Shown: positions 39,028-64,000, counted from the stretch's first letter. The stretch is DNA of 64,000 nt from Spirochaetia bacterium (GCA_034520965.1 JAXHMY010000003.1:1-64000), one strand, 5' to 3'. Numbers and translations are program-made. The notes: generated from the letters alone by a model not told the origin.

Positions 39028-39304
39028 AAGGCAATGGTAACGAAAGGCAAGGTGCCGAAGCAATAGTTCAGCTACTCATTCTGAATGATTTCGTTTTTCG
39101 CCGTTACTCATCCGAGGAGGCAGAACTGCTGTATGCAATCTCCGATGATATCAATATATTTTTATATTTTACTTATAACCCATTTTAAGTACAGTCCTTA
39201 GTATTATGTATTCAACTAAATATCAGTATATTCACGAATCATTAATTTTTTTATAGTAACTCGTAACAAAATATCTATTTGAAATTATACATTTACTATC
39301 TTAT

Positions 39305-39335
39305 CCGCCAGGTCAACTCCAAGTGCTTGTTAAAA
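39305..39335 (-). repeat. terminal attC, only R''/L'' arm intact
   Basis: CCGCCAGGTCAACTCCAAGTGCTTGTTAAAA on + strand; partner arm degenerate. Confidence 0.75.
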
Positions 39336-39345
39336 ACCTTTTTTA

Positions 39346-40556
39346 TTAGTATAGAAAACCAAATAAATACAATGGGATTTCCTTTTTATTACCATAAAGA
39401 ATATCATCCTTTACTAAATAGGATTTATCTAGTTCTTTTTTTATCTGCTTTTTATCTTTTTTCTTTCCGCCTATTTCAAATATTTTATTATTCACTAAAA
39501 AATCCCCTACCTCATTATAATATATTTTATTCCCGGAGTTTTTTAACATTTTTATAAAAAAGATCTCTCTTATTGTTTTCATCTGTGCCTCATATCCTAT
39601 CTCTTCTATAATAGCGGAATATAAGTCCTGATTATCAAGATACATCTTTTCAGTATTTTTTAATAAATTGCTGCCTGCCTTATTCCTTTTTAGGAGTTCA
39701 ATCAGTCCCGTTTCATATAATATCATTAAGTAATTTTGTATAGTCTTATTATCCAATCCAATATTTTTTGAAATGCTATTTATATTTAGCTCTCCCGGTG
39801 GAATAGTGGCAAGATAAGATAAAATTCTTTTAAAATGAAATAAGTTTTCAGTTTTTAATTTATAGTAGTTCGATATATCTTCAAATATGACCTTTTCTAT
39901 CACTCTCAGTATTTTTTGATGATACTGTTCTTTATCTTCCAAGTAAAAAGGATAATATCCACTGTTCAAGTATTCTTTAAAATGCCCTTTGATTTTTTTA
40001 ATTGATGATAGATTGCTTTCTAGTTCGCTTCTATTTTCTAATATCTCTTTCAATGTAGTATTTTCCGTTTCATAAATGTCATTAAAAAGCAAATACTCGC
40101 GAAAGGACATTCCATCCATACGATACAATACACCTCGTCTGGATAAATCATAGGTGCCTTTAATCAGGTCAATACTCGAACTACCAGAAAAGATCAATTT
40201 AATATCAGGATACGAATCATAAGCATTCTTCAACTCTTGATTCCATCGAGCGTATTTATGGATCTCATCAAAGAAAAAATATCTTACCCCATAGTCCTCA
40301 TATAACTCATTTATAAAGTCTATAATGGTATTTTTAGAAAAATATATATGATCAACTGATACATAGATGCACTCATCCTTGTCCCTTATATTCTCTTGTA
40401 TATATTGTAGTAACAGAGTAGTCTTGCCAGTACCTCGTGGACCAATCAATCCAGTTAGACGACTATTGATATTGAACTCTTTATAGATATACCTGTGATA
40501 CTGATAATTGTATTCTCTAATAGACGCTTATAAGTAGCAATAAAATTTGTTAACAT
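39346..40556 (-). CDS. cassette: AAA_14-family ATPase (5' end frameshifted)
   Basis: GPRGTGKT, FFFDEIHKY, SGSSS, FEIGGK, IPLYLFGFLY; start approximate. Confidence 0.85.
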
Positions 40557-40624
40557 TAGAGTAAACTCCTATAATAACAACCCTAATCTTGAGTATACTC
40601 CAATATTTTGTATTTGAAAAGTGT

Positions 40625-40758
40625 TTTTAACCTTCACTTGAGCTGCCTGGCGCTGTCACGCTATAACTCATATTCTTTATCAAATTTACACCGGTTTCTC
40701 AAATCAAAAAACACTTTTCACTATTTACCACCAGATCAACTCCAAGTGGTTGTTATGT
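40625..40758 (-). repeat. attC site
   Basis: TTTTAACCTTCACTTGAGCTGCCTGGCG...CCAGATCAACTCCAAGTGGTTGTTATGT. Confidence 0.9.
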
Positions 40759-41460
40759 TCATTTTTTACTATTTTTTCTCCATATACCAGTATATTCTGG
40801 TACAATTTTCTTTTTATTCTTTAATATATTTTTTCCCATTTCTGCTCCAAAGAAGAACCCAATTGTTTCTGCTGCTTCTTCGTAATTCTTGAACTTAAAA
40901 TCTGTACTTACAATTGTATTCTCAAATCCATATTTGTTTTCTAATAGGTTATAGAAATATTTCAAAGCATTAGTATTTATTTTAGGTTCATTAACGTTTG
41001 TTCCCATAGTTTCAATTATTATTATTTCCCCTCCATTGATAATATTTTCATTTATATTCTTAATTAATTTTTCTGTTGTTCTTTTTATATTATTACTGTT
41101 TTCCACAATTGTGTGACCAAAACTCCAGCCCTCAATAAATATATGTGCTTTTTCTCTTATTACTGGAAGAGACTCATTATCTCCTACTTGTAGTATCATT
41201 CTATCTTTATACTTATTTAAATTTTCTTCACATTTCGAAAGCATATGATCTTCTTTGTCAAACCCATAGACTTTTTCTATTTTATCAATATATATTTTTG
41301 TTAATCTACCTGTTCCGATACCTGCTTCGTATACGATCTTTTTATTCCAATCAATATTGTTAACTAGTTGTTCGATTAGTATCCGCTGATAATCTTCTGC
41401 TTTAACTAAATTATCATATTCTTCAGCGTACTTTTTATATATTTCTTGCATTGTTGGCAT
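40759..41460 (-). CDS. cassette: class I SAM-dependent methyltransferase
   Basis: YEAGIGTGR motif I; YGFD motif II. Confidence 0.85.
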   Translation of the reverse strand: MPTMQEIYKKYAEEYDNLVKAEDYQRILIEQLVNNIDWNKKIVYEAGIGTGRLTKIYIDKIEKVYGFDKEDHMLSKCEENLNKYKDRMILQVGDNESLPVIREKAHIFIEGWSFGHTIVENSNNIKRTTEKLIKNINENIINGGEIIIIETMGTNVNEPKINTNALKYFYNLLENKYGFENTIVSTDFKFKNYEEAAETIGFFFGAEMGKNILKNKKKIVPEYTGIWRKNSKK

Positions 41461-41569
41461 TTTATTTACCTACACTTTTTCAATTGCTATTGTTCTATCC
41501 AATAATTTATTTAAAATTGTTTCTTACCGTTACCAGTATTATAATAAATTTGATTTCTTTACTAAATGA

Positions 41570-41704
41570 ACATAACGGTCACTTGAGCAGCTTTACTCTG
41601 TTATCATATAGCCCAATCTCTTTAAATAGTGTAACTCCAGTTCTCCAAATCAACAACTTCTTTGCCATATTCACCGCCAAGTCAAGTCCTAGTGGTTATT
41701 ATAT
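41570..41704 (-). repeat. attC site, degenerate (R'' AAC mutated to AAT)
   Basis: 135 bp matching the consensus with several arm substitutions. Confidence 0.85.
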
Positions 41705-41998: not shown

Positions 41999-42260
41999 TT
42001 ACTCATAATGTGTCCACATTCGAATTATCTTTACGATTCTCTCTTTTTCATACACCTGATATACTATACGGTGTTGGATGTTTATTCTTCGTGAAAAGGA
42101 TCCTGCTAAATCGCCTAATAGTCTTTCGTCAGGAAGGACATCTTCAATGGATCTCCCCTTTGAAGTGTATCGTATTTTCTCGGCGTTCTTTTTCGAATTC
42201 GACTTGCGTGATTTTTTTCGCATCTTTTTGTGCTTGTTTTGTATATACCAGTTTATACAA
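41999..42260 (-). CDS. yoeB: cassette: Txe/YoeB toxin (frameshifted)
   Basis: YKLVYTKQAQKDAKK...ERLLGDLAGSFSRRINIQHRIVYQV...IRMWTHYE. Confidence 0.85.
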
Positions 42261-42266
42261 CAGCCT

Positions 42267-42512
42267 TTACCACTCTATTTCTTCAGCACATTCGTCTATA
42301 TCGGCCTTCATCCCTTCTATTATTGATTCTCTCATACCCGGGATTGATGTAAGATACAATGTCTCTTCAATGTTTTTCCAATCTTCTTCGCTTATGATAA
42401 CCGCTGTTCCCTTCTTTCCGGTTATGTGTACCGGCTCATGAGATTCTATTACTTGTTCTATCAGTTTATACAAATCTTTTCTTGCGTTTGTTATGTTTAT
42501 TGTATTATTCAT
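42267..42512 (-). CDS. yefM: cassette: Phd/YefM antitoxin
   Basis: NITNARKDLYKLIEQV...HEPVHITGKKGTAVIISEEDW...ETLYL. Confidence 0.92.
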   Translation of the reverse strand: MNNTINITNARKDLYKLIEQVIESHEPVHITGKKGTAVIISEEDWKNIEETLYLTSIPGMRESIIEGMKADIDECAEEIEW

Positions 42513-42523
42513 CCTTACTCCTC

Positions 42524-42572
42524 GTACGTAATAACGTACTACAAATTTACCCTGATTTTTATGATCAGTCAA
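42524..42572 (-). promoter_or_regulatory. cassette-internal sigma70 promoter and operator of yefM-yoeB
   Basis: TTGACT-17 bp-TAAATT followed by the palindrome GTACGT-N4-ACGTAC before the RBS. Confidence 0.65.
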
Positions 42573-42616
42573 CAAGTATTTACTTAGTTATTTATTATTT
42601 TATTAGTTTGAACATA

Positions 42617-42751
42617 ATATAACGTTCACTTGAGATGCTTGGCGCTAACAGTATATAGCCCACTCACTTTAACCATTGTAACTCTACATTTCCAATTCAA
42701 AAATCTCTTTGCCATATTCACCGCCAGGTCAACTCCAAGTGGTTGTTATCC
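42617..42751 (-). repeat. attC site
   Basis: 135-bp consensus; R'' overlaps the stop codon of the upstream gene. Confidence 0.92.
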
Positions 42752-43048
42752 AGCAATTTTGTCTTTATCGACCAATTGCCCAGTTATATACTTATGAACA
42801 ACACTTTTTATAAATGTTTGATATTTTAATCCCTCTTTCGAAGCATATTCTTTTATCTTTTCAAGCTCATAGGGATCGATTCTAATATTCATTTTCTTTT
42901 CATTTTTCACAAACTCCCTTGCGGCTTCTTGGATTTTGTCCTGTTCTTCAGCTTTTGATTTTGACAGTGTTTCATAATCCAGCCCATCAATAGATTCTAT
43001 CAACTCTTTTTCTTCTTCATCTAAAAAATCAGTATCATATTTATTCAT
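42746..43048 (-). CDS. cassette: CopG/BrnA-like antitoxin
   Basis: KMNIRI...LEKIK..A..EGLKYQTFIKSVVHKY RHH pattern. Confidence 0.8.
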   Translation of the reverse strand: MNKYDTDFLDEEEKELIESIDGLDYETLSKSKAEEQDKIQEAAREFVKNEKKMNIRIDPYELEKIKEYASKEGLKYQTFIKSVVHKYITGQLVDKDKIAG

Positions 43049-43313
43049 AAGTTTCCTCCTCTATAAGGTACTTAAATTTCCTGTTTGGATAGATAGTCTT
43101 TAAAAACCATGTATCTCCCTCTACAACATAGGGAACACAGTATGCATAACCATCTATTTCAACAACCATTACTTTTTGATTTGAATATTTCTCTCTGTTT
43201 GGATTATCAAAATTGAGCAGTACACCCTTTTCAGCAATTGCTTCAATGACGTTATAGAAAATAACACCTCTTTTTTTTAAACAAGAGTATGTTCTTTTAT
43301 TGACTAAAATCAA
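43041..43313 (-). CDS. cassette: BrnT-like toxin (5' end damaged)
   Basis: PNREKYSNQK...YAYCVPYV...FLKTIYPNRK; overlaps the antitoxin start. Confidence 0.7.
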   Translation of the reverse strand: MILVNKRTYSCLKKRGVIFYNVIEAIAEKGVLLNFDNPNREKYSNQKVMVVEIDGYAYCVPYVVEGDTWFLKTIYPNRKFKYLIEEETYE

Positions 43314-43492
43314 ACTTTATACTACTAATATAATACGTTGTGCGCACTTTGTCTACATGCTTGTTAATGTTATTTTTTCTTGTGTTAGAACTAAGAACAC
43401 ATTTCAGTAATTTTTCTTAAAAGCACTTATTCGAACTATTGTATTTATTTTGTAATTATTTTTACATTTTCTAAGAACTGTGTAGCAATGAA

Positions 43493-43529
43493 TATTCACC
43501 GCCAGGTCAACTTTAAGTGGTTGTTATAT
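43493..43529 (-). repeat. attC, only R''/L'' arm intact
   Basis: TTCACCGCCAGGTCAACTTTAAGTGGTTGTTATAT; partner arm eroded. Confidence 0.75.
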
Positions 43530-43543
43530 GGTGTTCATTCTTC

Positions 43544-43948
43544 TTAATATTCTTTAATTATTTTTTCTGTTTCGTTAAATATGTTTTCTGCTTCATCTAA
43601 AAATTCTTTAACTTTATTGATTGATGGTTTTCCTTCTGGCAGTAGTCCGAAATCTGCTGGATATCTTGTATCAATATATACTTGGTTTATTTGATCCAAT
43701 ACTTCTTCGCTTATCTTCATATCAATATTAATTTTTTCTTCTTCAATTTTTTTTAATAATTTTATTAGATCATGCGTTCTTGGTATCTTTTTATTATTTA
43801 GTTCTAATAATGCTTTAAATGACTTTTCAATACATTGTTGGGTATGAAAGGCTGCTATTGTGCTAAGATTATCTACAGTAATTATTGCAATAGTTGCTTG
43901 CAAGTCAGTCTTTGCAAATTTAATCCATTCTTTAGCTTGCTTCTTCAT
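43544..43948 (-). CDS. cassette: HEPN domain protein
   Basis: FHTQQCIEKSFKALL, PRTHDL, YIDTRYP. Confidence 0.9.
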   Translation of the reverse strand: MKKQAKEWIKFAKTDLQATIAIITVDNLSTIAAFHTQQCIEKSFKALLELNNKKIPRTHDLIKLLKKIEEEKINIDMKISEEVLDQINQVYIDTRYPADFGLLPEGKPSINKVKEFLDEAENIFNETEKIIKEY

Positions 43949-44276
43949 ATAGTATTTTTCCAGATTCATGGATTTCTTTTTGAAATGAGTTCATTTCTTT
44001 CTTTAATAATTCATATTGAGGTCGAGTATATACTAATAAATCTAGCGCAACATCTCTGTTTATTTCTCTCAATACTCTTCTTACTCTCATTTTAATTTCT
44101 AGCCAGTCGTCATAATTTTTAGGTAATATATCCTCATTCAACACAATTAGTAGATCAATATCACTTTCTTCATCTTCTTTTTCATTAGCATAAGAACCGA
44201 ATAGTATGACCTTATATACATTAAGTGTGGATAGCTTTTCCAGTATTTTGTCTATATACGAGTTCTTTACAGCCAT
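43932..44276 (-). CDS. cassette: minimal nucleotidyltransferase (MNT)
   Basis: ILFGSYA...SDIDLL, DLLV motifs; overlaps the HEPN start. Confidence 0.9.
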   Translation of the reverse strand: MAVKNSYIDKILEKLSTLNVYKVILFGSYANEKEDEESDIDLLIVLNEDILPKNYDDWLEIKMRVRRVLREINRDVALDLLVYTRPQYELLKKEMNSFQKEIHESGKILYEEAS

Positions 44277-44378: not shown

Positions 44379-44513
44379 ATATAACGTTCACTTGAGTTGC
44401 TTGACGGTCTTTACCGTAATAAGTCTTTCTATACTATTGTATGTCCTGTGAGCCTGCTACACCAACACTTTCGCTTTTACACCCGCAAAGTCTGCTCCAA
44501 GCGCATGTTATGT
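44379..44513 (-). repeat. attC site, divergent variant
   Basis: 135 bp; consensus R' arm, but different R'' arm (CGCAAAGTCTGCTCCAAGCGCATGTTATGT) and loop. Confidence 0.8.
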
Positions 44514-44906: not shown

Positions 44907-45789
44907 TTACTGTTGCACGCTCCGGTACTGCAGCATCCATTCATATATGGAGCTGTCAAACGGCGCCCACTCGCTTTGTGTAGGTTCGTCGTGTGCCGAA
45001 TGGTACACGGCGTCCCAACAGTTGTGCCCGAGATCAGTGAAGATGGTCAATTTAGCCGTATACTCTGGATCATCGGCATTGGTCATTTTGACAAGGCGAA
45101 CTGATTCCTGTGGATCAATCACTTCGTCTTCCGCGCCGTGAAATGCCCAGATCGGAATATGATCAAACCCATCGCGAGACATATACTCTCTCGCAGCGTC
45201 GTCCGGTAGGAACCCCGCGATGGGGACCGCGGCCGCTATGCGTAGAGACCGACCGTTCCCTCCGACGACTTCCCAAGTCGCCACGCCTCCCAGGCTAAGG
45301 CCTGTAAGATATTGTCTGGTTTCGTCAATTCGGTAATGCTTTCGCAGGTCCGGAAGGATCTCCTCAACACCTTTCCAGGCTGTTTCCGGGTGAGCCTGCG
45401 GTGCCACGACAATAAACGGATGAGGCGGATTCCAAGTCCCTTCGGCGATCATTCGAGGTATTCCGTACTCCAGAACACGCTCCAAGATAACCTCATACTC
45501 GGTACTGTCACCGATTTCCCCACGACCGTGAAGGAAAAAGATTACCGGGTAGTCCTTGTCATGGGAGTCATAGCCCCCTGGCAAATAGACAATGAGGCCA
45601 TTCTTGGCACCAGGAAAGTCCTTGCCAGCGATCAGTTTCAACTCGCCGCCTGTGTCCGGCGGTAGTGACAATTCAGACTCCCACGCGGGATCACGAATCG
45701 TTCTGAACTGAGGGGTACCTCGAACCGCAACCAAGCAGTAACAAGGAAATGACGATCACAATCGCGACAACTACAATACTGACACGCAT
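44907..45789 (-). CDS. cassette: lipoprotein esterase/peptidase, alpha/beta hydrolase (5' frameshift)
   Basis: AGGAGG RBS, LLGC lipobox, FLHGRGE, GLSLGG, WAFHGAED, GHNCW; GC-rich compared with the array. Confidence 0.8.
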
Positions 45790-46202: not shown

Positions 46203-46337
46203 GTATAACGTTCACTTGAGTTGCCTGGCGCTGTTATGATTTAGCCCACTCACTTTAACCATTGTAACTCCTGTTTTTCAATTCAACAATCTCTTTCTCA
46301 ATTTCATCGCCAGGACAACTCCAAGTGGTTGTTATGT
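46203..46337 (-). repeat. attC site
   Basis: 135-bp consensus. Confidence 0.95.
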
Positions 46338-46831
46338 AGCGCAGGTTCAAATGAAATTATATTTTATATATGCTTTTTGCATCCGATCAATTAGATTATT
46401 TATTAGGTTATTAACCACGAATGTTTTTCTTATACCTGCAATTTGGATAATTTGAACAACCATAAAATTTACCATATGGTCCATTTCTAACTAATAAATT
46501 TCCTCCACATCTGGGACAAACTAATGATCTTTCTTTTTGTATTCTTTCATAATTATTCTTATGTATCTGCTGCACATGTTCTTTTCTAGTATCTTTATCC
46601 AGGATATTTAATTTCGAAAGTTGATCTGAAATTATTTTTACTTCACTAATAGATAAGTTTTGTCTTATGCTTTTTCTTGCAATAATTTGAAAAAGTTCAT
46701 TATCATTGTCAGCAACGGTGATAAAGTTCCGGATATCGACGGTTTAAAAGTTCCGCTTTTACGACACAAATAAGGGCGGATAACCTATAGTGGGATTGAC
46801 CGAAAATACACCACAAAAGGAAACCGCCCAA

Positions 46832-48113
46832 ATGTGTCGAAAGGAAGATCGGATGCATATAGCTCGCATCCTGGCCAGAGAAGGCCACAGACAGAAAGAC
46901 ATCGCAGCACAGCTCGGAGTCAGTGACCGTATGGTACGAAAGTACCTGAAAGAAGACTTTGGAGCAAGAGCTCGAAAGAAGCGTCGCAGCATTCTCGAGC
47001 CGTTTCACCGAATAATCGATGAGACGATCGAAGAGAATCCCTACACCAACCTGGTGCTGCTGTATGAGCGGCTCAAAAGTCAAAGGTATGGAGGAGGGAT
47101 GACTATCTTACGGGACTATGCCCGAGGGGTCAGGGAGCAAGTGATCACCAAAAGCGGTGCTGCGCTTTGAAACCGAGCCAGGCAGACAAGCCCAGGTCGA
47201 CTGGAAAGAGTGTGGAAGCTGGCTTATCGAGGGGAGAATGCAGAAACTCTATGCATTTGTCATGCTCTTGGGCTACAGTCGACGGCCTTTCGTGCTGTTT
47301 ACCACCAACATGAGGCTCTCGACGGTGTTGTTGGCACATTTGGCGGCCTTTGCCTGGTTTGGAGCTGTGCCTTAGGAGATACTCTACGACAACATGAAAA
47401 CCGCCTGGCTGAATCAGGGCGGCAGTTGGATCGTAAATCCTGGGCTTCTCTCATCGGCCTCGGCCTGTGGGTTTACGCCTCTGAGGTGTAAGGTCCGCCG
47501 GCCTCAAACGAAAGGCAAAGTCGAGAGGTTTATCGGCTATTTGGCGCATAACTTTCTACCGAGAGTGGAGAATCGAGCCGGAACGACACTCGAGGAGCTT
47601 AACGGCGAGGTCGCCGATTGGCTTAAAGAGATAGATGCGCAGCAGATCGGCGGTATTCGCAGCACCCGTGCCGAGAGGTTTGCCGAGGAGAAGCCCTATA
47701 TGAATACCTGGGTACCGGAGGCTGCCCCCGATGTACGGGATATGGTGGGCCTGGTGGTCTCCAGGGAGGGGAAGTTGACCTATCAGACGAACCAATACAG
47801 TGTGCCTGCCGAGCATATCGGCCAAATGGTTACTCTGAAAATAAATACCCTCAACTACCGTTCTCAGGTATTCACTCAGGAGAATCTGCTGCTGCGTGAG
47901 TTTACCCTTTCGACAAAAGGGGCTCGGGAGATGAATATACGCAAGGAGGATACCGAAAGCCTCATAGAGCGTTGGAAAGCCGAACGACGGCCTACGGTAA
48001 AAAAAGCACCACAGGAGGTGACCGATCCGCAGATTCTTGATGAGCTAATAGCCACATCGGTGGAAACACGCAGTCCCGCCTGTTACGATCAGCTGGTAGG
48101 AGCGGCCTCATGA
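46832..48113 (+). pseudogene. istA: IstA transposase (frameshift near 47,150; in-frame TAG at 47,373)
   Basis: [30 protein letters not shown] motifs. Confidence 0.85.
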
Positions 48114-48874
48114 ATGCACTCAGCGAAACGGTAGGAACCCGTATGCAGGAGATGGGTCTGCAGTTCATGGCCGCCTCTCTGGAAAGTTATCTCGAAGAGC
48201 AGAGCCATAGTGACAAAACCCTTCTGCAGTCCCTTGCAGACCTGCTGGAGCTCGAATACCTTCCCCGCAAAGAGAGGGCTGCTCGCAGTCGCCTGAAGCT
48301 CTCGGGGATGCCTGCGGTAAAGCGGTTGGAGGACTTTGATATCTCCTGGCTCAAAGGGGGCCTGTCGGCCCGTCAGCTTGCCGAACTGTCCTCACTGAGC
48401 TTCATAGAGCGGAAAGAGAATGTGGTGCTCATGGGACCCAGCGGCCTGGGCAAGAGCCACCTTATGCTGGCCTTGGGGTACAAAGCGTGCATGACCGAGT
48501 TCACTGTCTGGTACACCAGCTGTATAGATTTGATCGAAGGACTTAAAAGGGCACGTGAACAGGGGCGTTTGAAACGCCGACTGACATGGCTGAAAAAACC
48601 GCATTTGATTCTTATCGATGAAGTCGGTTACGAGAATCTCTCGAAAGAAGAAGCGAACCTTCTCTTCCAAGTGGTCAATGCCCGCTACGAATATGGCAGT
48701 ATGATTCTCACTACGAATAAGGCTTTTGGTCGTTGGGCGGAGGTCCTGGCAGAGGAAGCTATTGCAACAGCCACCATCGACCGGCTTCTCCATCATGCAC
48801 ATGTGTTCAGCCTAAAAGGAGATTCATACCGGATGAAAGACCGGCTGAAAATCGGGGTCGTTGACCCTATGTAA
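48110..48874 (+). CDS. istB: IstB ATPase
   Basis: GPSGLGKSHL, IDEVGY, LTTNK, DRLLHH, GDSYR. Confidence 0.95.
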   Translation: MNALSETVGTRMQEMGLQFMAASLESYLEEQSHSDKTLLQSLADLLELEYLPRKERAARSRLKLSGMPAVKRLEDFDISWLKGGLSARQLAELSSLSFIERKENVVLMGPSGLGKSHLMLALGYKACMTEFTVWYTSCIDLIEGLKRAREQGRLKRRLTWLKKPHLILIDEVGYENLSKEEANLLFQVVNARYEYGSMILTTNKAFGRWAEVLAEEAIATATIDRLLHHAHVFSLKGDSYRMKDRLKIGVVDPM

Positions 48875-49531
48875 AACTATAAAAAGCGGAACCGCTACAC
48901 CGTTGAAAAGCGGAACTTTCTAAACCGCTGTTGACATTATCATAAACAACTGGAACTTGAGAAGTTACGTTTTTTAATTCTCCACTACCAACAAAAACGA
49001 TAATAGGATGATACGTTATATGTCTGAAATTCGAAAGAACTTCTTTTAATGCATATATATGGGACCAATTTTGTTTAATAGGATTCCTAAATTTATCTCT
49101 ACTTTTATAGAAAGTTTGAGTCCAATATTCTGTAATTCTCATTTCCATGTATCCAACCACTATAGTTCTTGGTTTCAATAACAAATATACCATATGTTGA
49201 AATAACAATATGATCTATTTGGCTACTTCCTTTACTTGTTCTTATAAAAATATTATTCAGAACTTTGTATTCTTTATCATCTAGTTTGTTTAATTGCCCT
49301 GCTATCCTTGATTCGCCTATGTGGCCCTTAATTTTTGGTTTATTTATCTTGAAAATGAATATCAAGATAATTGCGATTAAAAATAAAACTATATTCATAA
49401 TATGTTTACTCTTTTACTTTTAATTTGCAATAATTTCACACAACATCCTGTAGATAATGAATTTCATTATGTTATTTCTAATGCATCAATTATTTACCAA
49501 TAAACGGTATAATTAAATTATACATTGTGCT

Positions 49532-49666
49532 ACATAACGTTCACTTGAGTTGCCTGGCGCTGTCCTTATATAGCCCTTTCTCTTTGACCATTGTAACTTC
49601 AGTTCGACAATTCAACAACTTCTTTGCCACATTCACCGCCAGGTCAACTCCAAGTGGTTGTTATGT
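49532..49666 (-). repeat. attC site
   Basis: 135-bp consensus. Confidence 0.95.
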
Positions 49667-50759: not shown

Positions 50760-50818
50760 TTCATGTACATTATAACACATTCTTTGCTCATTACAAGCTT
50801 TTCATGTACATATCGTGC

Positions 50819-54126: not shown

Positions 54127-57100
54127 CTAAAGTAATAACTCTCTTTGTCCCTTATAGTTAATTGAATTGGCTTTTTTCCAAAACTCAATTCCAGTTTTGC
54201 TTTTAGAAGCAAAGATAATATCATAATAATGCTTAATAGGTCTATAATCGAATTTTGAATAACCTAAATTTCTTAAACTATTTTCATAGTACTTCCTGAA
54301 TAGTAGCCTTAATTCCTTATGTAGCCCTTTTTCAGCCATATCCATTGCTTCTTGATTTTCAAAAAAATCATTACTTCCAAGAAATGTTCTATATTTTGTA
54401 GAGTAGACATACTATCGCCTTCCTTCATTAAGAGAGTTACGACAGCATGCCCCTCCCAGAACCGTACGTGCGCAACTAACGCATACGGCTCCTAGCACTA
54501 AACATTCGACCATTGCCAGATGTCTTTGCAAATTCTCGGTCTTGGTATTAATTTCCATATCCTTTCAAACGTCTCCCAATTAATCTTGCGCTTCTGACCT
54601 CTACGCCTTAGAGCCTTATACAGCGTGTATCTGATGTATTTATAGAACTTGTACAACCCTTTCAGATTGCCATTGACCCCGTAGTAATTGTAGTGCCCAA
54701 CCAGTTTCCGGCTGAGTGCTCTCACAATCTCCATGACAGGTCGATGCATATTCCATCTAATCCACTGTTTTGCGCTCTCGCGTTTAGCCTTCAGCTTCTT
54801 CTTGCTAGTGAGGTGCAGGACTGTGTACTTACCAGTCCTCGTACTGGCATTCACGTGGGTGAATCCAAGAAAATCAAATGTTTCCTTGGTTCCTTTGTAC
54901 CTTCCAAACGGAATGATCCTTGTCTTCTCTTCGGCCACCGTTAGCTTGAACTTTGCAAGCCTTTTAAGCATCACCTCGTAGAATCTTTTCGCATCACCCT
55001 CGTACTGGAACAATACCACATAGTCATCCGCATAACGGTACAAGTATGCCTCACCCCTCAAATACCTTTTTGCTGACCTTCTCAAACCACAAGTCGAGTA
55101 CGTAATGAAGATAGACGTTAGCCAGCACCGGCGACAGAAGCCCTCCTTGCGGAGTGCCCTTGTCGCTGTCGCTGACATTCCCATTCTCCATGATCCCCGC
55201 CTTGAGAAATCTTACTACATAACGGATGAAATTCTTGTCCTGTATATCGTTCTCAAGAAACTTCACCAGCCATTCGTGGTCGACATTGTCAAAGAACCCT
55301 TTGATGTCGGCATCAAGAATATAATTTACCTTCTTAGTCATGATCGTTTGGTTTATTTCCCGTATCACATCATGACAATTCCGATTCGGCCTGAACCCAT
55401 AGGAACAGTCCAGAAACCTCGGTTCGTATATCTCAGTCAGCGCCTTCGCCATTATTCCCTGTACGAGTTTGTCCTCATACGCCGGGATTCCCAGCGGCCG
55501 TACCGTGCCGTCCGTCTTGGGTATATACGTTCTTTTAACCGCCTGCGGTCTGTAACTGAAGGATTTCATCCGTCCAAGCAATGCATCCACATGCTCTTCC
55601 AATCCGGTTTCATAGCTCTCCTTCGTCGCTCCGTCTATGCCTGCGGCTTTTCCTCTGACCTGCGCTCGATGCTCTGCCTTCAGGTTCTCCCTGTTGACAT
55701 AGTGTATGAGCGTCTGCATCTTCGCGTGACTCTCCGACAACCTCCTCAATTCCCCATAACTGTTTTCCACTCTCTCAGAACCTCCAGTGTTCCTGGTGTT
55801 GGTCACAAGAAATACGTTTAATGCCCAGACCCCTTCGCTCCACCGACTTTCACCGGTTTCATCGCTACTATGAGTCGTAAGCGCTTCACAAACACAGGGT
55901 TAAAAAACTAACCTGGGAAGTTCTGTGGCAGAAGTTTTCTCCAGTCGCCATCTGTTTCTGCGGAAATACATCCTGAAAGCACATATCTAAGGTATCCATA
56001 GGGATCCAATCCGTTTAGTTTGGCCGTTTCAATGAGAGAATAGAAGTTTGCACTTGCATAGGCTCCTCGTGGACTGTCACAAAACTGCCAGTTTTTTCGT
56101 CCGATTACGAAAGGCCGAATTGCACGTTCACTCACATTGTTGTCCGGAGTCAGAGCTTCATGATCGAGAAAATGGCTTAGTTTATCCCACTGGCCTCTGG
56201 CATATGCAACAGCTTTTCCTAACTGAGATGAGGGGGCAACATTGCTTTTCCTGCTGAGCCAGATAGAAAAATCTTCAAGTAAAGGTTCAATCGCCGCCCG
56301 CCGGGCTGCAAGAAATTCGGTTGCAGGGAGGTCTTCTCCCGCAGTTCTTTTTCTTTTTGGTAGATCTTTGCAATCTTGCTCACTGCCTCATGGGCCGCTC
56401 CGGTTTTCTTTTTCACCTTTGCCGCGTCAACAAACTTACGACGGATATGGGCCAGACAGGCTACATGCGTAATATCGCCGAAGCCTCCGATGTGACTGTA
56501 TCCTTCATACCCATCGGTTTGAAGATAACCGCGGAAAGAATGCAGATACACTTCGGGCACGTGTTTGCCTCGCGATGGGGCATAGAGATAGCGTACGATT
56601 GGCTTCTTTGGCATTCCCCCAACTGCTACCCACATGTAGGAGTTACTGCTGTTCTCTTTGTTTTGCTCCCGGTGGACCTGCACCCGGGTTTCATCCATAT
56701 TGATTACAGGCCCGGCGCGAATCTCATCATCGAACAGCTCGATCAGCGGCTCAAGTTTTTTGCTGGCTTTCATGATCCACCTTCCCATCGTCTCTCTGGG
56801 AATATGGATGTTCAGCCGCTCAAACATTTTCTCCTGCCGGTACAAAGGTAGGCTGTCGCAGTACTTCGCCGTTGCAATGTAGGCTACCAGGGATTCTGTG
56901 GCTATCCCCTTTTCAATCAGCTGCGGGGCAGCGGCTGCAGTGAGTATGGTGTGCGCATCTGCACTCTCATCTCCGCCTGTACTACATGCATAGGTGTGGC
57001 GAACCGTACGTTTGACCACAAACTGCGGTGGGCGAATCTCCAGCTTTTCGCTGATCTCTTCTCCAATACGCTGAAGAGTAAGCGCTTCACAAACACAGGG

Positions 57101-60100
57101 TTAAAAAACTAACCTGGGAAGTTCTGTGGCAGAAGTTTTCTCCAGTCGCCATCTGTTTCTGCGGAAATACATCCTGAAAGCACATATCTAAGGTATCCAT
57201 AGGGATCCAATCCGTTTAGTTTGGCCGTTTCAATGAGAGAATAGAAGTTTGCACTTGCATAGGCTCCTCGTGGACTGTCACAAAACTGCCAGTTTTTTCG
57301 TCCGATTACGAAAGGCCGAATTGCACGTTCACTCACATTGTTGTCCGGAGTCAGAGCTTCATGATCGAGAAAATGGCTGAGTTTATCCCACTGGCCTCTG
57401 GCATATGCAACAGCTTTTCCTAACTGAGATGAGGGGGCAACATTGCTTTTCCTGCTGAGCCAGATAGAAAAATCTTCAAGTAAAGGTTCAATCGCCGCCC
57501 GCCGGGCTGCAAGAAATTCGGTTGCAGGGAGGTTCTTCTCCCGCAGTTCTTTTTCTTTTTGGTAGATCTTTGCAATCTTGCTCACTGCCTCATGGGCCGC
57601 TCCGGTTTTCTTTTTCACCTTTGCCGCGTCAACAAACTTACGACGGATATGGGCCGAGACAGGCTACATGCGTAATATCGCCGAAGCCTCCGATGTGACT
57701 GTATCCTTCATACCCATCGGTTTGAAGATAACCGCGGAAAGAATGCAGATACACTTCGGGCACGTGTTTACCTCGTGATGGGGCATAGAGATAGCGCACG
57801 ATTCGATTCTTCCGATCCCCTCCAACTGCGACCCACATGTAGGAGTTGCTGCTGTTTTCTCTGTTTTGCTCCCGGTGGACCTGCACCCGGGTTTCATCCA
57901 TATTGATTACAGGCCCGGCGCGAATCTCATCATCGAACAGCTCGATCAGCGGCTCAAGTTTTTTGCTGGCTTTCATGATCCACCTTCCCATCGTCTCTCT
58001 GGGAATATGGATGTTCAGCCGCTCAAACATTTTCTCCTGCCGGTACAAAGGTAGGCTGTCGCAGTACTTCGCCGTTGCAATGTAGGCTACCAGGGATTCT
58101 GTGGCTATCCCCTTTTCAATCAGCTGCGGGGCAGCGGCTGCAGTGAGTATGGTGTGCGCATCTGCACTCTCATCTCCGCCTGTACTACATGCATAGGTGT
58201 GGCGAACCGTACGTTTGACCACAAACTGCGGTGGGCGAATCTCCAGCTTTTCGCTGATCTCTTCTCCAATACGCTGAAGAGGCGCTCCACAGTTACAGAC
58301 CCTTTGCTCTTCGGGCAGATCAATTTCGGTAGTCTCACGGGGTAGATGCTCAGGCAAAGGCTCTCTGCCCCCATGGCCCTTTTTCTTTACCCTCGTGTGA
58401 GCGGCCACCGGTCTCTCTTCGCTCTCCTCTTGCGGGGCCTCTGAGAGACATTCGGCTTCATTGAAAAGCAGTGCTTGTTTTTGCTCGACGGTATTTAGTT
58501 TTTCTGTTGATTTAGCAAAAAATCTGTTCAGGACAATCTGATACTTCTCTTCCAGCTGCTCGTAGGCCAGTTTTTGCTTGAGGTTTTCATTTTGCAGATC
58601 ATGTATCATCTGCTGCAGTTCATCTATGTCTTCCGGTAGTTGCTCCGGTCTCGCTTCTATACTCACAAGCCGAATTGTATCAGATCACTTATTTTTGTTC
58701 TAGACCCTAAGTCACTTTTGTGTACTCAAGTTCACGGTGGGCTTTCCAAATATTCAGCCCGTCGAGCAGCAGCCGCCACTGTCGAGCACTAATCTGATGT
58801 ACTTCATCTGCCTCCGTAGGCCAGGGGAAAGTATCTTGTTCAAGGCGTTTTTGCCATAGACAAAAGCCGTTGCGATCCCAGTAGATTGCCTTCATAAGGG
58901 TGCGTTTACGATTGCAGAAGATGAACAGTGCTTTTTGAAAAGGATCAAGCTCCATTTCTTCCTGCACCACTGCCGCCAGTCCGGCTGATTGCTTTCGCAT
59001 ATCGGTCGGTCCAGCTTTTACAAACAGCTGGACCTTTGACAGATCGAGAAACATTAGAGGTGCTCCAATGCAGAGACTACAGCCCGTAGGGTATCTGGAC
59101 TAAAATCCGGGTACACTTCGATGCGATAGTCATTAGGTAGTTCGATTTTAATGCTGGCCGCTTCTTTACTGCTGCTTGTGTGAGCACACTGTGCTGCTGT
59201 TAAGCTGACAGAGACAAAGCCCTGATCGGCGGTTCTCTTTTTATTTTGCAGCTGATTAAACCAACTGTAGAAGATATTCCGTTTTATTCCGATTTGCTGT
59301 GCATACTCGGTCTTGGTCAGGCCACTTTCTTTCCATAGTTCGATGTGCAGCTTCTTCTCTCTTTGGTAATTTTCATAGGCAGTCACTCCTTTTTCTGTTC
59401 TTATTTGGAGTTTCTGCTATTTTTCCTTTCCTGAACCAGACGGGGTTTGTGAAGCGCTTACTATGAGTCTGTCCGATTGCTGATGCCCCATATAGGTTTC
59501 TTGACTCTTCGCCTTTATGTCCCCTCTTAGTCCAACGGACAGGACATCAGCCCTCCCAGGTACGCTTGATCTACCTTGTGTGCTCGCCATGCTCTCAGAC
59601 CCCGTTGGGTTCTCGGCACTCTCGCCTTTTCCGAGTGCTTCTTGCTGGTTGCTGTCATATGAAAAACATCACCACCCAATCTTTATACTAACGAGGCTCA
59701 ATCACGTTCAACCTTTCGGCTTATGGCTCGCACACTCCTTTACCTACGCTTAAACCTCACCTCACGGCTTCGGCTCCAAGGCTAAGTACCGGCTGTTGGC
59801 TAGACTTTACCGGACAGGGTGTCTCACCCTGCTATATATCAAACGCCGAACTGGCGCACTCATATGATCTACTATACTTCTTTGGACTGTTAAAAACCCC
59901 TAGTATATTTCTATTGAAGTCAGTTCCTGAAGCAACATTAATAATAAAATCAACATTGTTTATTGTCTTAGATATTTCTTCTATTAAATTAAAGGGTACA
60001 CTACAATCTGTCGGATCAATAAATACAATGTTAAGATGGTCAGTAGGTATTTTTCTTTTAAGACATTACAAATTGTTTCTGGATGATAATAATCACCTTG

Positions 60101-60532
60101 TATAGCTTGTGCTTTTTCCAATTTATTATCTATAAATCTGTCATTTAGATTAGTGACTATTTCGTTATCAATATCAAAGAAAAGAGCATTTGATATATAT
60201 TTTAAATTTTTATGCTTACCAATAGCTAAAGGAGTACCATCTAGTTCAATTCCTGTATCTCTATTTACACATCTGCCAGGACCGCTGCAAATTTCAATAT
60301 AATTAAGTCCGTTCCACCGAATATGCATACCTTGAGAAAATATACCAAAATATTTCACTAAGTAGAATATTTTCTCTTCCGCCCAATCACCAACACATCT
60401 CACAGGCCTATTATCAATTGTAGATAAGGTCTCAACACACATATCATCTATGGTATAAGCTTTTCGGTCATTTTTATTACATTTCTTATAACAATTTTTG
60501 TTTTCAACTTTGTTTAGATCGAAACTTTCCAT
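54127..60532 (-). CDS. tcmP: cassette: TcmP-like (three-Cys-motif partner) methyltransferase-fold protein, split by a group II intron
   Basis: VGDWAEEKI, YIEICSGPG, GTPL, VFIDP, IIFASK motifs; exons 60532-59860 and 54397-54127 join in frame (..KYSRSYE|KYRTFLG..); extra frameshift near 60,055. Confidence 0.75.
54498..55806 (-). CDS. ltrA: group II intron reverse transcriptase/maturase (frameshift near 55,055; no endonuclease domain)
   Basis: RPLGIP, SYGFRP, DADIKGFFD, GTPQGG, YADD, FDFLGF; maturase GHYNYYG. Confidence 0.93.
55877..57077 (-). mobile_element. partial IS66 copy (3' part of tnpC plus terminal inverted repeat)
   Basis: Begins GTAAGCGCTTCACAAAC; near-identical to 57078-58279. Confidence 0.9.
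57109..58666 (-). CDS. tnpC: IS66 transposase (frameshift near 57,655)
   Basis: LPLYRQ, MDET, LQTDGY, DNNVSERAIRPFVIGRKNW motifs. Confidence 0.9.
58707..59054 (-). CDS. tnpB: IS66 accessory protein
   Basis: PTDMRK...LFIFCNR...YWDRNGFCLWQKRLE. Confidence 0.93.
   Translation of the reverse strand: MFLDLSKVQLFVKAGPTDMRKQSAGLAAVVQEEMELDPFQKALFIFCNRKRTLMKAIYWDRNGFCLWQKRLEQDTFPWPTEADEVHQISARQWRLLLDGLNIWKAHRELEYTKVT
59054..59386 (-). CDS. tnpA: IS66 HTH accessory protein
   Basis: WKESGLTKTEYAQQIGI...FYSW. Confidence 0.85.
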   Translation of the reverse strand: MTAYENYQREKKLHIELWKESGLTKTEYAQQIGIKRNIFYSWFNQLQNKKRTADQGFVSVSLTAAQCAHTSSSKEAASIKIELPNDYRIEVYPDFSPDTLRAVVSALEHL

Positions 60533-60548: not shown

Positions 60549-60683
60549 ACATAACGTTCACTTGAGTTGCCTGGCGCTGTTACGCAATAGCCCACTCTCT
60601 TTAACCATTGTAACCCGAGTTTCGCAATACAACAACTTCTTTGCCAAATAGTCCGCCAGGTCAACTCCAAGTGGTTGTTATGT
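60549..60683 (-). repeat. attC site
   Basis: 135-bp consensus. Confidence 0.95.
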
Positions 60684-60686
60684 TCA

Positions 60687-61384
60687 TTACATTTTACTTT
60701 TTATCCATATCCCTGTATATTCTGGTACAACTGCACTTTTACTCTCTAATACTTTATCTTTCATTTCTTCTCCAAAGAAAAAACTTATTATTTGGGCAGC
60801 TTCTCTATAGTCATTGAATTTATAATCAGTTTTAACAATAGTTTTTACAAACGCATATTCTTCTTCAAGCAAGCTATAGAATTCTATTAAATCAGTATTA
60901 TTTATTTCCGGATCTTTCACATTTGTACCAAGAGTTTCAATTAATATTTTCACACTATTATCAGTGGTTATCTGATTTATGTTATTTAACAGCTTTACAG
61001 TAGTACTCTGAATATCATTATTGTTTTCAACTATAGTGTGTCCAAAACTCCATCCTTCAATAAATATATGTGCTTTATTTTTTACCAAAGGCAAATTCTC
61101 ATTTTCACCAACATTCAAAACTATTTTATCTGAATATTTTTTTAAGTTTTTTTTACATCTATTTAGCATATGAGCTTCCCGATCAAACCCATAGAGCTTC
61201 TCTATTTTGTCAATATATATTTTGGAGAGACGTCCCGTACCGATACCTGCCTCATATACGATCTTTTTATCCATTCTATTCTATTTAATAGCTCTTCAGT
61301 CAAGTTGTTTTGATAATCTTCAGCGGTTACCAACTTGTCGTATTCGGTAGCATACTTTTTATATATTTCACTCATTTTCGGCAA
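60687..61384 (-). CDS. cassette: class I SAM-dependent methyltransferase, paralogue of 40759-41460 (frameshift near 61,272)
   Basis: YEAGIGTGR, FIEGWSFGHTIVENN, VPEYTGIW shared with the other copy. Confidence 0.85.
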
Positions 61385-61519
61385 AACAATTTTCCCTTCC
61401 TCATTTTGTTAATCTAAAACTCACAATAACTTTTGAGATTAAAATAGTATTATAAATAATGTTTCATCTTACATGCCCACTAAGTTTAACCAACTTCAGC
61501 ATCGATAGTAATTTCATGA

Positions 61520-61655
61520 ACATAACGTTCACTTGAGTTGCCTGGCGCTGTTACTGCAATAGTCCACTCTCTTTAACCATTGTAACTCCAGTTCTCCGAA
61601 TCAAAAATCTCTTTCTCAATTTCATCGCCAGGACAACTCCAAGTGGTTGTTATGT
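61520..61655 (-). repeat. attC site
   Basis: 136-bp consensus. Confidence 0.95.
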
Positions 61656-61659
61656 TTAA

Positions 61660-62471
61660 TCAGTTATCTAATTTTAATAATTTATTAGCATACTCAGATC
61701 CATGGTTTTCACACCAATATGTTTTCATGTAATACGCATTATTAAAATCGAAGTTTTTATTATCTTTCAATGATAATGATTGCCATATATCTTTTTCTCA
61801 CCAGTATAGGTACCGTTTTCACACCCACAAGACTTAAGTGCATAATCAGATTTTAATTCTTTATAATATCTATCTGAAACCATTAACTGTCCCTTTTCTG
61901 TCAAACTCGCTAATTTTGCAGCCATATTCACTGGCTTACCTGCCCATACTTCATTTCTTCTATCTGATCTATTATTCTTTTGCCTTAAACCTATTTTTTT
62001 TACTAATACAGTCTTTTTATCTATTCCTATATGTACACCTAAATCCAATTTACTTCTTTGCTTATATAAAGGAATAAAAGATTTTTCTACAAATGTTTTT
62101 ACAGTAACAGCGGATACAAGCGATCTATAAATTTCATTTTTATTAAATAATGCAAAAACGCCATCACCCTGCACTTCGACATATGAAGCATCATAAAAAT
62201 GAAAAATTTTTATTATTGTACCTGTAAATAATTCATATGCACTGGCAGTGCTCGAATCATATTTTTGTTCTGCAGAAAGTCTTGTTGAACCAATCATATC
62301 CGTATATACACATATTACATCATTTATCTTGAGCCATTTATTTCCTTCTTTTGGAATATTATTTGTGTCTGGAATGCTGTCAATTATATCAATATTATTT
62401 TTCTGATTAAACAGTTCTATTTGTTCGTTTATTTTATCTAAAATACCTTTCGGTAGTTGTTTTTCATCCAT
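61660..62471 (-). CDS. pycC: cassette: Pycsar pyrimidine cyclase (3' frameshift)
   Basis: YTDMIGST, QGDGVFALF, HIGID, VWAGKPVNMAAKL class III cyclase motifs; adjacent to a TM effector. Confidence 0.8.
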
Positions 62472-62481
62472 ACTAATATCC

Positions 62482-62987
62482 CTATAACAAAATTGTTAAA
62501 AAAGTTAATATCAAACCAATTGTAAATATGCTAATTGCAATATTAAATGCTCTAAATTTTTCTAAAACAATATTTGATAGTGTATAAATCTGCTTTGCTA
62601 TATCTTTTTCTTCTTTATTTAATTCTTCATTATTAAAATACTCCCTCTGTATTATTTCAATAAATTCATCCTTAGTTTGTATGCAAGCTATATCTGAAAA
62701 AAGAAATAAATTTGGATTTGATACAATTTTTCTGCGTCTTGCATAGATCTGTTTTGTTTTAGGTATCATACTTAACAGACTAATCAATAGTGATAATATT
62801 AATAATATAATACTTTATAAAAAAATATTAAGCTATCATTGTTGTATAATAATCTCTGGCTTTTCAGAAACCCAATTAATGCAATTACAAAACCTATTAG
62901 TATTGTGTTTTTACTTTCTGCATATTTAATTAAATTTTGCAAATTCTCAAAATTTGTTATTAATTTACTTATCTTGTCCATTATCAT
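62482..62987 (-). CDS. pycTM: cassette: Pycsar transmembrane effector (frameshift near 62,800)
   Basis: IKYAESKNTIL + TM; NLFLFSDIA; KQIYTLSNIVLEKF + TM, matching the DUF5706 layout. Confidence 0.8.
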
Positions 62988-63000
62988 GCTCCAGGATTAA

Positions 63001-63135
63001 ACATAACGTTCACTTGAGTTGCCTGGCGCTGTAACGCTATAGCTCACTCTCTTTAACCATTGTAACTCCAGTTTTTCAAATCAACAATCTCTTTCTCAAT
63101 TTCATCGCCAGGACAACTCCAAGTGGTTGTTATGT
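63001..63135 (-). repeat. attC site
   Basis: 135-bp consensus. Confidence 0.95.
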
Positions 63136-63150
63136 AGCGCAGGTTCAAAT

Positions 63151-64000
63151 TGCAGAATCCGGACCAATCCGGACACCAATTCCGTTTCAAAACGGACAGT
63201 CATTCCGGCGCAAAGCGGACACCGATTCCGGGAATAAACGGACAGTTTTTTTGCTGACGCCGGAATAATTTACGGTAAGAACAATCCTCGAAAAGTCGCT
63301 ACACTTCTGCTCAAACATACAATAAAGCAGGAGTACTATGGCACGAGCGAGGATTACTATGAGACAGCTACGAAAGATCTTGGAATACTCCCTCGAGAGC
63401 AGGCTGAGCCTGCGTGAGGTTGCTACGCTCACCGGAGCATCCAAGACTACCATCAGTGAGTATCTGGCCCGCTTCAGGAATAGCGGGATTACTTATCAAG
63501 ATAGTTTGACGATGTGCGATCAGCAGCTGATCGAACTGTTCGAAGAGAAAAAGGAGGCAGAGAGCGAAGCTTACAAAGCTTTGGTTGCCCTTTTTCCCGC
63601 CTATGAGGTGAAACTGAAAAAGAAAGGCATGACTCGGCAATTGCTTTGGCAGGAGTACCGCAGAGCTCATCCTGAGGGGTATCTCTATAGCCAGTTTTGC
63701 CATCACTTGAGAACATGGAGGGACAGCCTCGATGTAACAATGCACCAACACCACGAGCCTGGCGACAAAGCTTTTCTCGACTACACCGGTACGAGGTTTC
63801 CCTACTGGGATCGAGAGGGCGGAGAGCAGAAGAAGGCTGAGGTGTTTGTTGCCATTCTCGGAGCAAGTGGGCTGACCTATGTGGAGGCCAGTAGGAGTCA
63901 GGAAAAGGAGGAGTTTGTTCGATCCACCGAGCGAGCACTTCTCTACTACGGCGGTGTCCCCCGTGCCTTGGTGCCGGACAATCTCAAAAGCGCCGTAAAG
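63151..64000 (+). mobile_element. IS21-family element (second type), truncated by the window end
   Basis: TG start; tandem CGGACA...ATTCCG subterminal repeats; istA follows. Confidence 0.88.
63338..64000 (+). CDS. istA: IstA transposase (partial)
   Basis: MRQLRKILE HTH; LLWQEY; MHQHHEPGDKAFLDYTG; VPDNLKSAV. Confidence 0.9.
   Translation, partial: MARARITMRQLRKILEYSLESRLSLREVATLTGASKTTISEYLARFRNSGITYQDSLTMCDQQLIELFEEKKEAESEAYKALVALFPAYEVKLKKKGMTRQLLWQEYRRAHPEGYLYSQFCHHLRTWRDSLDVTMHQHHEPGDKAFLDYTGTRFPYWDREGGEQKKAEVFVAILGASGLTYVEASRSQEKEEFVRSTERALLYYGGVPRALVPDNLKSAVK

Follow-up and report, generated by a model that had tools for sequence, protein, structure and literature searches.

Predicted loop promoters and apparently mosaic attC sites in the sedentary integron of a free-living spirochaete

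The standard model of the integron regards attC as nothing more than a site of recombination that also slows translation. Cassettes distant from the cassette promoter (Pc) count as a silent, low-cost memory, save where special promoter cassettes express them. Among the closest described systems are the superintegrons of Vibrio with their VCR sites, which combine a divergent intI, attI and Pc with a long, homogeneous attC family, toxin-antitoxin (TA) and defence cargo, paralogous cassettes, and attC sites whose bottom strand lies on the leading-strand template (PMC4889954, PMC5371416). All of these features recur in an integron that begins within a 64,000-nucleotide stretch of Spirochaetia DNA, referred to as the window, which represents bases 1-64000 of contig C3 in a 3.35-Mb genome assembly (9 contigs, 86% complete). 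The spirochaete array differs from the Vibrio superintegrons in having 22 cassettes rather than about 100, and bulged bases of the form T/A-N6-C instead of the usual T-N6-G; both bulge patterns recombine with the integrases tested (PMC3053210). It further differs in a largely unpaired 73-nt attC loop with a promoter signature and in an IntI with an extra N-terminal SAM-like domain.

The integron itself is of a known kind, whereas the promoter-like loop and the apparently mosaic attC sites go beyond the first-pass annotation of this DNA. We conclude that the locus is probably the sedentary integron of a free-living spirochaete in which the 135-bp attC has two functions, with arms that form the hairpin and a loop predicted to act as a housekeeping-type promoter, and in which attC sites are exchanged by homology. 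Relative to known integrons, a predicted promoter-bearing, mosaic attC family of this kind appears to be new and is well supported by conservation of the sequence.

A promoter signature in the attC loop

A repeat-profile search of the contigs yielded 24 matches at 39.3-78.2 kb of C3, all on the minus strand. These comprised 22 full attC sites, 11 of them inside the window (134-136 bp in length), and two 5'-half sites (39292-39332 and 43492-43531). The first-pass annotation had counted 11 full and three partial repeats; the former number stood, the latter did not. The order R''-AACCA-L'' (CTTGGAGT)-loop-L' (ACTCAAG)-TGAAC-R' was exactly as described there, and the bottom strand folds, as proposed, with two extrahelical bases, C and T/A, six apart. 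Arm motifs occurred 12 and 10 times in the window versus 0.00-0.01 expected (at most 1 in 100 shuffles). In the named hairpin 97.3% of cells were paired, compared to 20-39% after sliding; covariation was slight because the arms hardly vary. Together, the R'', L'', L' and R' boxes, the unpaired central spacer (a loop of 73 nt) and the two extrahelical bases identify the repeats as attC sites. Folding was pronounced in 17 sites (z -2.8 to -7.0) and weak in four distal sites (z +1.9 to -0.7) and in site 71108 (z -0.9). With 22 sites at a mean identity of 83%, and 75% of pairs at 80% or more, the claim of a long array with a homogeneous family was borne out; at a range of 62-99%, the sites are not near-identical as had been stated.

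On the top strand, the loop carries TTGTTG-17-TACAAT about 51 nt before R', which matches, with a moderate score, the -35 and -10 hexamers of a sigma70-type promoter at 17 nt in the form used by the host. The site chosen as an example is located as follows, and its offsets are shared by the other full sites:

63059-63087 (-): predicted loop promoter of attC 63001; -35 TTGTTG at 63087-63082, -10 TACAAT at 63064-63059

The positions that matter most in sigma70 promoters are the TTG of the -35 and the T, A and T of the -10 hexamer. Conservation was determined on 64 distinct family members from the array genome, 53 metagenome loci and the genomes G010 and G019. The six key columns were conserved at 0.94 as compared to 0.78 for the loop columns (p=0.0009), and the spacer measured 17 nt in 63 of the 64 sites. 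The -10 hexamer followed TAnnnT in its variants, reading TACAAT (44 sites), TACACT (6), TAAAAT (5), TAGAAT (3), TATAAT (2) or others (4). A host promoter model built on 542 divergent upstream regions of the array genome and seeded only with TAnnnT learnt TTG(A/C) at 17 nt; under this model the attC site lies near the 70th percentile of host upstream regions. In 20 of the 22 sites attC scored better than its shuffles (p<=0.05), with the top score lying 9 nt further on in two of the 20. The motif was also retained where the arms had decayed: five decayed sites had 2 of 35 key bases changed versus 53 of 221 arm bases (p=0.014), a count that left out wholly lost arms and two half sites without a loop.

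Related signatures were found in other attC families. Across 27 long attCs (170-187 bp) from G010, G013, G024 and one metagenome contig, the loops could not be aligned save for TAnnnT at one column, often with TGn just ahead, and the top strand scored better than the bottom strand in 26; approximate -10 frequencies served for this comparison and the host-derived model for subsequent ones. In two further loop types the hexamers are fixed and flank a variable spacer of 17 nt, TTGTTC-17-TATACT in six of seven and GTGATT-17-TAnnAT in eight of eight sites, and a lone 155-bp attC of G089 bears TTGAGC-18-TACAAT on a 100-bp scaffold. A 101-bp attC of G010 resembles the 178-bp site minus the loop. The motif was absent from the 97-143-bp attCs of G017, G049, G050, G054, G071, G072, G119, G135, G140 and G141; some 113-115-bp sites that passed the -10 threshold (5 of 16 in G128, 2 of 4 in G165) were excluded from the counts. 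In this survey the strict finder gave arrays in 8 of 20 loci around intI, the relaxed finder gave none in at least 7 of 30 genomes, and the table covers sites of at least 95 bp whose L box was not poor.

Several results weigh against a promoter. A generic scan with the E. coli consensus missed the loop site, which has 8 of 12 matches and falls below threshold; the same scan called 71 promoter-like sites in 9.3 kb of the AT-rich array versus 51 in shuffles and placed promoter candidates within several cassettes themselves. In the 170-187-bp families a TTG -35 is mostly missing and scores under the model of the array genome are only moderate, and the attC families are not independent because they share ancestry. 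Two 197-202-bp attCs of G073 (L162/L181) have a long loop with a pyrimidine-rich top strand and no motif. Finally, AAAG at -42 to -39 and a T at +12 are as conserved as the key bases.

These points would fit an ordinary sedentary integron with little transcription from the loop, the motif being either an AT-rich relic of descent or an aid to hairpin extrusion by DNA melting or protein binding: chance -10 sites abound in AT-rich DNA, just half of the -35 agrees with the consensus, conservation is as high at other loop bases, and Blanco et al. (PMC11014356) read start sites within an attC as possibly spurious. We regard this explanation as unlikely, since the 17-nt spacing is fixed around a variable spacer in three loop types, the top strand is favoured, the motif outlasts the arms, and the observed -10 variants are among the host's commonest. 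The predicted loop promoter is the reading we prefer. Among the accessible literature, from which subscription papers and supplements lay outside the scope, no paper was found to describe a promoter as a family feature of attC.

The conserved bases just mentioned correspond to attC columns 42-45 and 95 (for example window 63094-63091), where AAAG and the single T are 96-100% conserved. AAAG was considered as an UP-element and rejected, as no such tract occurred in 120 host promoter sites. Assignment to the class of gene-less promoter cassettes was excluded as well, as the motif sits inside attC; the one gene-less cassette type is separate. Among the attCs covered by the scan, none gave a terminator-like call. 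In the 171-bp attC of L164, L175 and L084 (G094, G010), the -35 TTGTTC is the downstream arm of an inverted repeat, possibly an operator, whose other arm, GAACAA, lies about 10 nt upstream. Runs of attC about 390-400 bp apart occur in L166 (G119) and L167 (G128), many of them near-identical in G119; these are stacks of very short cassettes, perhaps gene-less.

Apparently swapped and mosaic attC sites

Duplicated cassettes should travel with their own attC, so that a mismatch between the divergence of body and attC is unexpected. Such mismatches were found in three cassette types. Divergence of body versus attC amounts to 2% (about 5% at synonymous sites) versus 16% for the SoFic copies, 3/724 (0.4%) versus 10/129 (7.8%) for the TA copies, and 3/961 (0.3%) versus 8/129 (6%) for the NERD copies. 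The sites attC 42617 and attC 71108 are equal over 129 nt and have unrelated cargo. A further site, attC 46203, matches its sister 63001 at eight informative sites and then 66688, the site immediately upstream of that sister, at the next eight, with no private base. This order has a chance of 1 in 12,870, or about 0.002 after allowing for 21 possible donors. The pattern of attC 46203 is that of the junction expected of a circle or tandem copy after a mid-loop crossover between the sites flanking a cassette.

Along the array alignment, incompatibility was clustered (p=0.005-0.046; p=0.002 in a second test), the two halves of attC were more weakly correlated than halves from random splits (p=0.003-0.04), and at least five matches were gained from two parents in 5 of 16 sites versus 0.75 in permutations. 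Against exchange stands the incompatibility test on 42 members from outside the array genome (G000; p=0.52) and on all 64 (p=0.55), both null, and an all-triplet recombination scan in which 46203 was non-significant after Bonferroni correction (0.35). The lone triple significant after this correction, with decayed site 41570, was set aside as rate heterogeneity.

The differences between duplicate attCs might instead stem from fast mutation of the hairpin, from IntI-mediated top-strand exchange at R'', or from consensus errors. The change of partner between 42617 and 71108 does lie inside the R''-proximal identical tract, where top-strand exchange by IntI would also fall, and the short-read contigs break at attCs, with no linkage confirmed. 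Fast attC mutation is unlikely, however, because in four of seven cross-sample cassette pairs attC differs no more than the body. The differing bases are mostly states found in other attCs, the switch in 46203 falls in the middle of the loop (columns 48-57), at a distance from the positions cut by IntI, 90% of site pairs share at least 25 identical bases, and a RecA motif is present. We therefore consider these non-homologous origins improbable and favour exchange by homology.

Gene conversion of attC was proposed as a possibility by Boucher et al. (PMC1382264), and the mosaic sites may represent its natural trace. Integrase-free events between 83% identical VCRs have been observed and ascribed to slippage (PMC5371416), and attC homogeneity has been explained by integrase specificity (PMC12614218). 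The literature searches listed no genomic study of chimeric, hybrid, mosaic or swapped attC. The mosaic sites bear on the question of why chromosomal attC families stay uniform.

Taken together, a working model can be drawn up. The attC arms would form the hairpin substrate of the integrase, and IntI, as in established integron biology, would insert cassettes at attI through the folded bottom strand; it probably acted recently, because a Pycsar-methyltransferase block lies at attI and again 17 kb further down. The unpaired loop would be a housekeeping-type promoter transcribing the next cassette, with RNA polymerase predicted to start about 50 nt before R' of each site. Expression of a cassette would then hinge on the attC of its upstream neighbour as well as on how far away Pc lies, and in an excised circle the gene would be driven by the circle's own attC. 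The repeats would exchange by homology, through RecA-type recombination or replication slippage and not through IntI, swapping whole attCs or halves between cassettes and thereby mixing, and helping to homogenise, the family. A bolder version, to which we give slightly less than even credence, holds that a spirochaete integron lineage evolved a promoter module in the hairpin tip more than once, so that each cassette activates its neighbour, the array is expressed, and attC recombination re-deals promoter halves and at the same time makes the family more uniform. If true, loop promoters would explain the expression of defence cassettes up to 40 kb from Pc, and the long attC loop would gain a function. 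Shuffling would set the level of each gene via the preceding attC, and the defence array would be expressed rather than stored silent.

Features, cargo and platform of the array

The features of the array, from its distal end to the integrase, are as follows; coordinates up to 64000 are those of the window.

39292-39332 (-): 5' half attC reduced to its R''-L'' arm, at the distal end of the array
39346-40449 (-): AAA_14/DUF4143 ATPase cassette gene (PADLOC PDC-S01, E 6e-31)
40625-40758 (-): decayed attC, 134 bp; loop TTTTTT-17-TAAATT
40759-41460 (-): SAM methyltransferase; the three recent copies are about 70% identical in DNA to this older paralogue
41570-41704 (-): attC with decayed arms (11/55 changed), TTGTTG-17-TACACT intact
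41999-42575 (-): YefM/YoeB-type TA cassette, toxin frame split
42617-42751 (-): attC, 129 nt identical to attC 71108 of an unrelated SoFic cassette past the window
42746-43313 (-): CopG-type antitoxin and upstream toxin-like open reading frame (ORF; no family match)
43492-43531 (-): 5' half attC; the same junction is a loose end in short-read contigs
43544-44276 (-): MNT-HEPN (type VII-like) TA pair
44379-44513 (-): attC of a divergent subtype; loop TGGTGT-17-TACAAT
44907-45734 (-): esterase gene, GC-rich for the array
46203-46337 (-): apparently mosaic attC, 5' part like 63001, 3' part like 66688, no private base
46338-49537 (-): NERD/Zn-ribbon cassette, copy 2, broken by IS21 (about 46707-48936, + strand)
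49532-49666 (-): attC of SoFic copy 3
49770-50780 (-): SoFic, third copy (PADLOC E 2e-111)
50819-50953 (-): attC
50954-53211 (-): gene-less cassette with IS1634 (about 51104-52775; transposase 51224-52753, + strand)
53212-53346 (-): attC
53341-60532 (-): TcmP-like and radical-SAM/DUF5131 cassette, interrupted by a group II intron (54398-59859) holding IS66 (about 55876-59464)
60549-60683 (-): attC
60687-61525 (-): methyltransferase cassette, copy of cassettes 2 and 9
61520-61655 (-): attC, 136 bp
61656-63006 (-): Pycsar cassette, PycTM then PycC, copy of attI-proximal cassette 1
63001-63135 (-): attC of NERD copy 1
63155-64000 (+): second IS21, extending to about 65743
C3 66688-78208 (-): 11 further attC past the window, with cassettes for NERD, ParE/Phd (two), DUF262-HEPN, methyltransferase (two), SoFic (two), lipoprotein, a gene-less cassette and glycosyltransferase
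C3 78209-79561: Pycsar cassette 1, attI-proximal
C3, after G 79562: attI crossover; the bases that open cassette 1 recur after attC 63001, where its copy stands
C3 79703-79675 (-): predicted Pc, TTGnnn-17-TAnnAT footprint over the intI ribosome site
C3 79716-80998 (+): intI, divergent from the cassettes, one frameshift near 80627

Cargo was assigned by PADLOC and Pfam hidden Markov model scans, which confirmed the Pycsar, Fic (SoFic) and TA cassettes noticed before. Across the whole array there are two Pycsar, three SoFic, four methyltransferase and two NERD cassettes, along with five TA-type pairs, a DUF262 protein (PD-T4-2_A/NsnA-like) with a HEPN partner, the PDC-S01 ATPase and the TcmP/radical-SAM pair. 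Pycsar was assigned by adjacent PycC (PADLOC E 1e-91) and PycTM/2TM matches, and its activity is predicted from sequence. The earlier view of a cargo rich in likely defence (anti-phage) genes, with the neighbours as defence candidates, is supported, with Pycsar, SoFic, DUF262-HEPN and TA in its favour; several cassettes are not defence-like (glycosyltransferase, esterase, a lipoprotein of no family, the gene-less cassette). Sedentary integrons are known to carry defence cargo (bioRxiv 2024.07.02.601686); the array offers ordinary defence candidates in NERD-Zn ribbon, TcmP/radical SAM and the methyltransferase in four copies. The cargo is, as noted earlier, AT-rich (28.6% GC versus 48.3% for the genome) and co-oriented, inserted insertion sequence (IS) elements excepted. 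Stop codons, said to overlap R'' often, do so in 3 of 13 cargo genes, and seven more end up to 9 nt away. In short-read contigs, SoFic and the methyltransferase stood at about threefold depth and Pycsar at twofold, in line with real duplicates, though contig depth of this sort cannot be equated with copy number.

Elements inserted inside cassettes comprise two IS21, one IS1634, one IS66 and one group II intron. The intron was the only hit when the window and three loci were scanned against Rfam at gathering level. Its copies (window 54398-59859 (-), C1:529614-531482 and C2:355468-357338) all insert after ATGA. The ATG of the array intron appears out of frame with the interrupted TcmP-like gene, and the IS66 within this intron has a 1.2-kb tandem repeat. 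A cassette-building IIC-attC intron was rejected, as the intron lies after ATGA inside a cargo gene, in sense to the cassettes. The gene-less 580-bp cassette (C3:75475-76055; L001:13475-14055) has no sense ORF of 35 aa, is matched unchanged by a short-read contig and has a 91% relative in metagenome locus L133; its older copy is the one carrying IS1634 (window 50954-53211). A 473-aa lipoprotein-like cassette gene (C3:72593-74014; L001:10593-12014) has an HExxH motif and no family match; the best score of an Atlas search, 0.85, is a lead only. When microbial-mat runs X3 and X8 were compared with L001:10390-20000, both had the methyltransferase cassette at about 99% and X3 also SoFic at about 98%, with nothing on intI at 90%; these cassettes are likely shared with other hosts of the same attC family. 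Among sequencing runs, none on record as RNA held the locus; a run guessed to be RNA gave contigs of methyltransferase cassette plus attC, which are uninformative on starts or levels.

Scattered attC matches outside the array occur on contigs C2, C7, C8 and C9:

C2:425968-426102 (L004): lone attC with TTGTTG-17-TACACT about 28 nt ahead of an ABC-three-component operon (CTD6, MC2, ATPase)
C8:1329-5193 (L002): two full and two decayed attC; HEPN/Toprim and other cargo
C7:187694-187781 (L005): one decayed attC preceding a methyltransferase-like ORF
C9:about 286320-286420 (L003): short, 100-bp-type attC adjoining an AbiJ/Abi_C gene

To the left of the array lie unrelated direct repeats at 3077-4341 (68 nt, three copies), 13825-14052/17551-17778 (228 nt, two copies, 95%) and 28677-28739/30666-30728 (63 nt, two copies), and, at window 27137-27815 (-), a small gene pair which we take to resemble a PIN-domain toxin-antitoxin module.

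The array was expected to run past the window with intI and attI to the right, and this is what was found: 11 more attC up to 78.2 kb, then attI and the divergent intI. The attI site has the G/TT crossover, and contigs of G009, G011 and G016 terminate at identical attI bases, AAGATGTTAT. One short-read contig spans cassette 1, attI and the start of intI; its run is maybe the source sample and so not independent. The TTGnnn-17-TAnnAT footprint by intI is present in silico in six of six aligned genomes and is likely Pc, judged by sequence. An IntI with the integron-specific insertion, also anticipated, was identified: TIGR02249 was the best family of both intI pieces (185.8 and 172.7 bits, each alone below the 265 cut-off), and the alignment contains the R-K-H-x-x-R-H-Y residues together with the insertion. 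A cluster of attC sites lacking an integrase (CALIN) was excluded, as intI starts 154 nt from attI, and no close second intI copy occurs in the assembly. The intI gene lies tail-to-tail with the same chemoreceptor-like gene in the same-genus genomes G003, G005, G007 and G009, and beside the same ABC operon in G014 and G016. Because intI occupies the same locus in related genomes, the earlier assignment to the sedentary chromosomal type stands. In a quick IntI tree the integrase groups with same-family G003, G009, G011 and G014, and integrases of this kind occur in 56 of 161 genomes of the class. Judged by GC skew, the leading-strand template carries the attC bottom strand, an arrangement shared by 25 of 30 sedentary integrons (PMC5371416). 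At C3:79716-79970 and in the relatives L028 and L031-L035, IntI carries an additional domain at its N terminus that is similar to a second SAM-like domain (hhalign probability 90.7%); most sampled spirochaete IntI proteins measure 390-470 aa.

In the present assembly intI is frameshifted, and among the short-read contigs no inserted base is listed at the break; both weigh against our overall reading of the locus. The frameshift may be real and recent, leaving the integron frozen and the array to change solely by IS insertion and homology-driven exchange, which would be compatible with the predicted promoters. We consider the case evenly balanced. The gene is one base short near 80627 relative to five relatives, base losses are the rarer assembly error (4 versus 17 gains in 227 kb by hand count), protein searches gave no near-identical whole IntI, and four IS elements and one intron lie within the array. 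On the other side, the break is located in a short G run, short-read contigs remove seven extra single bases in the nearby cassettes 1-2, frame changes affect 29 of 192 conserved genes (0.18 per kb, giving a chance of about 0.2 for one in intI), and the intI genes of relatives at 85-87% identity are whole.

Comparison with known systems

The chromosomal integrons of Treponema (PMC3607928) share a spirochaete host, and some of their attCs measure 115-132 bp. Membership in the inverted Treponema type was excluded, as intI is on the plus and the cassettes are on the minus strand; in G019, where a single attC follows intI in the same orientation, IntI belongs to a separate clade.

With the promoter-bearing gene-less cassettes of Blanco et al. 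(bioRxiv 2023.11.21.568050/PMC11014356) and other cassette-borne promoters (PMC8876359), the array would have in common a mobile promoter serving a downstream cassette far from Pc. In those systems the promoter resides in the cargo of special cassettes or in a 5' leader, the review PMC8876359 naming leader, intron and gene-less-cassette promoters, whereas here it is predicted inside nearly every attC.

The closest working analogy to the mosaic attCs is provided by the PeSL (promoter/stem-loop) repeats of T4-type phages (PMC2839356). These are also repeats of about 100 bp that contain a sigma70-type promoter and a hairpin and flank accessory genes, and their homologous recombination gives circles that carry a chimeric repeat, an outcome to which attC 46203 also points. 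Membership among the PeSL repeats was excluded by the cognate intI and attI and by the lack of terminator calls reported above. No dedicated recombinase is known for PeSL repeats, whose hairpin acts as a terminator, whereas the hairpin of the spirochaete array is an attC with its cognate intI and attI.

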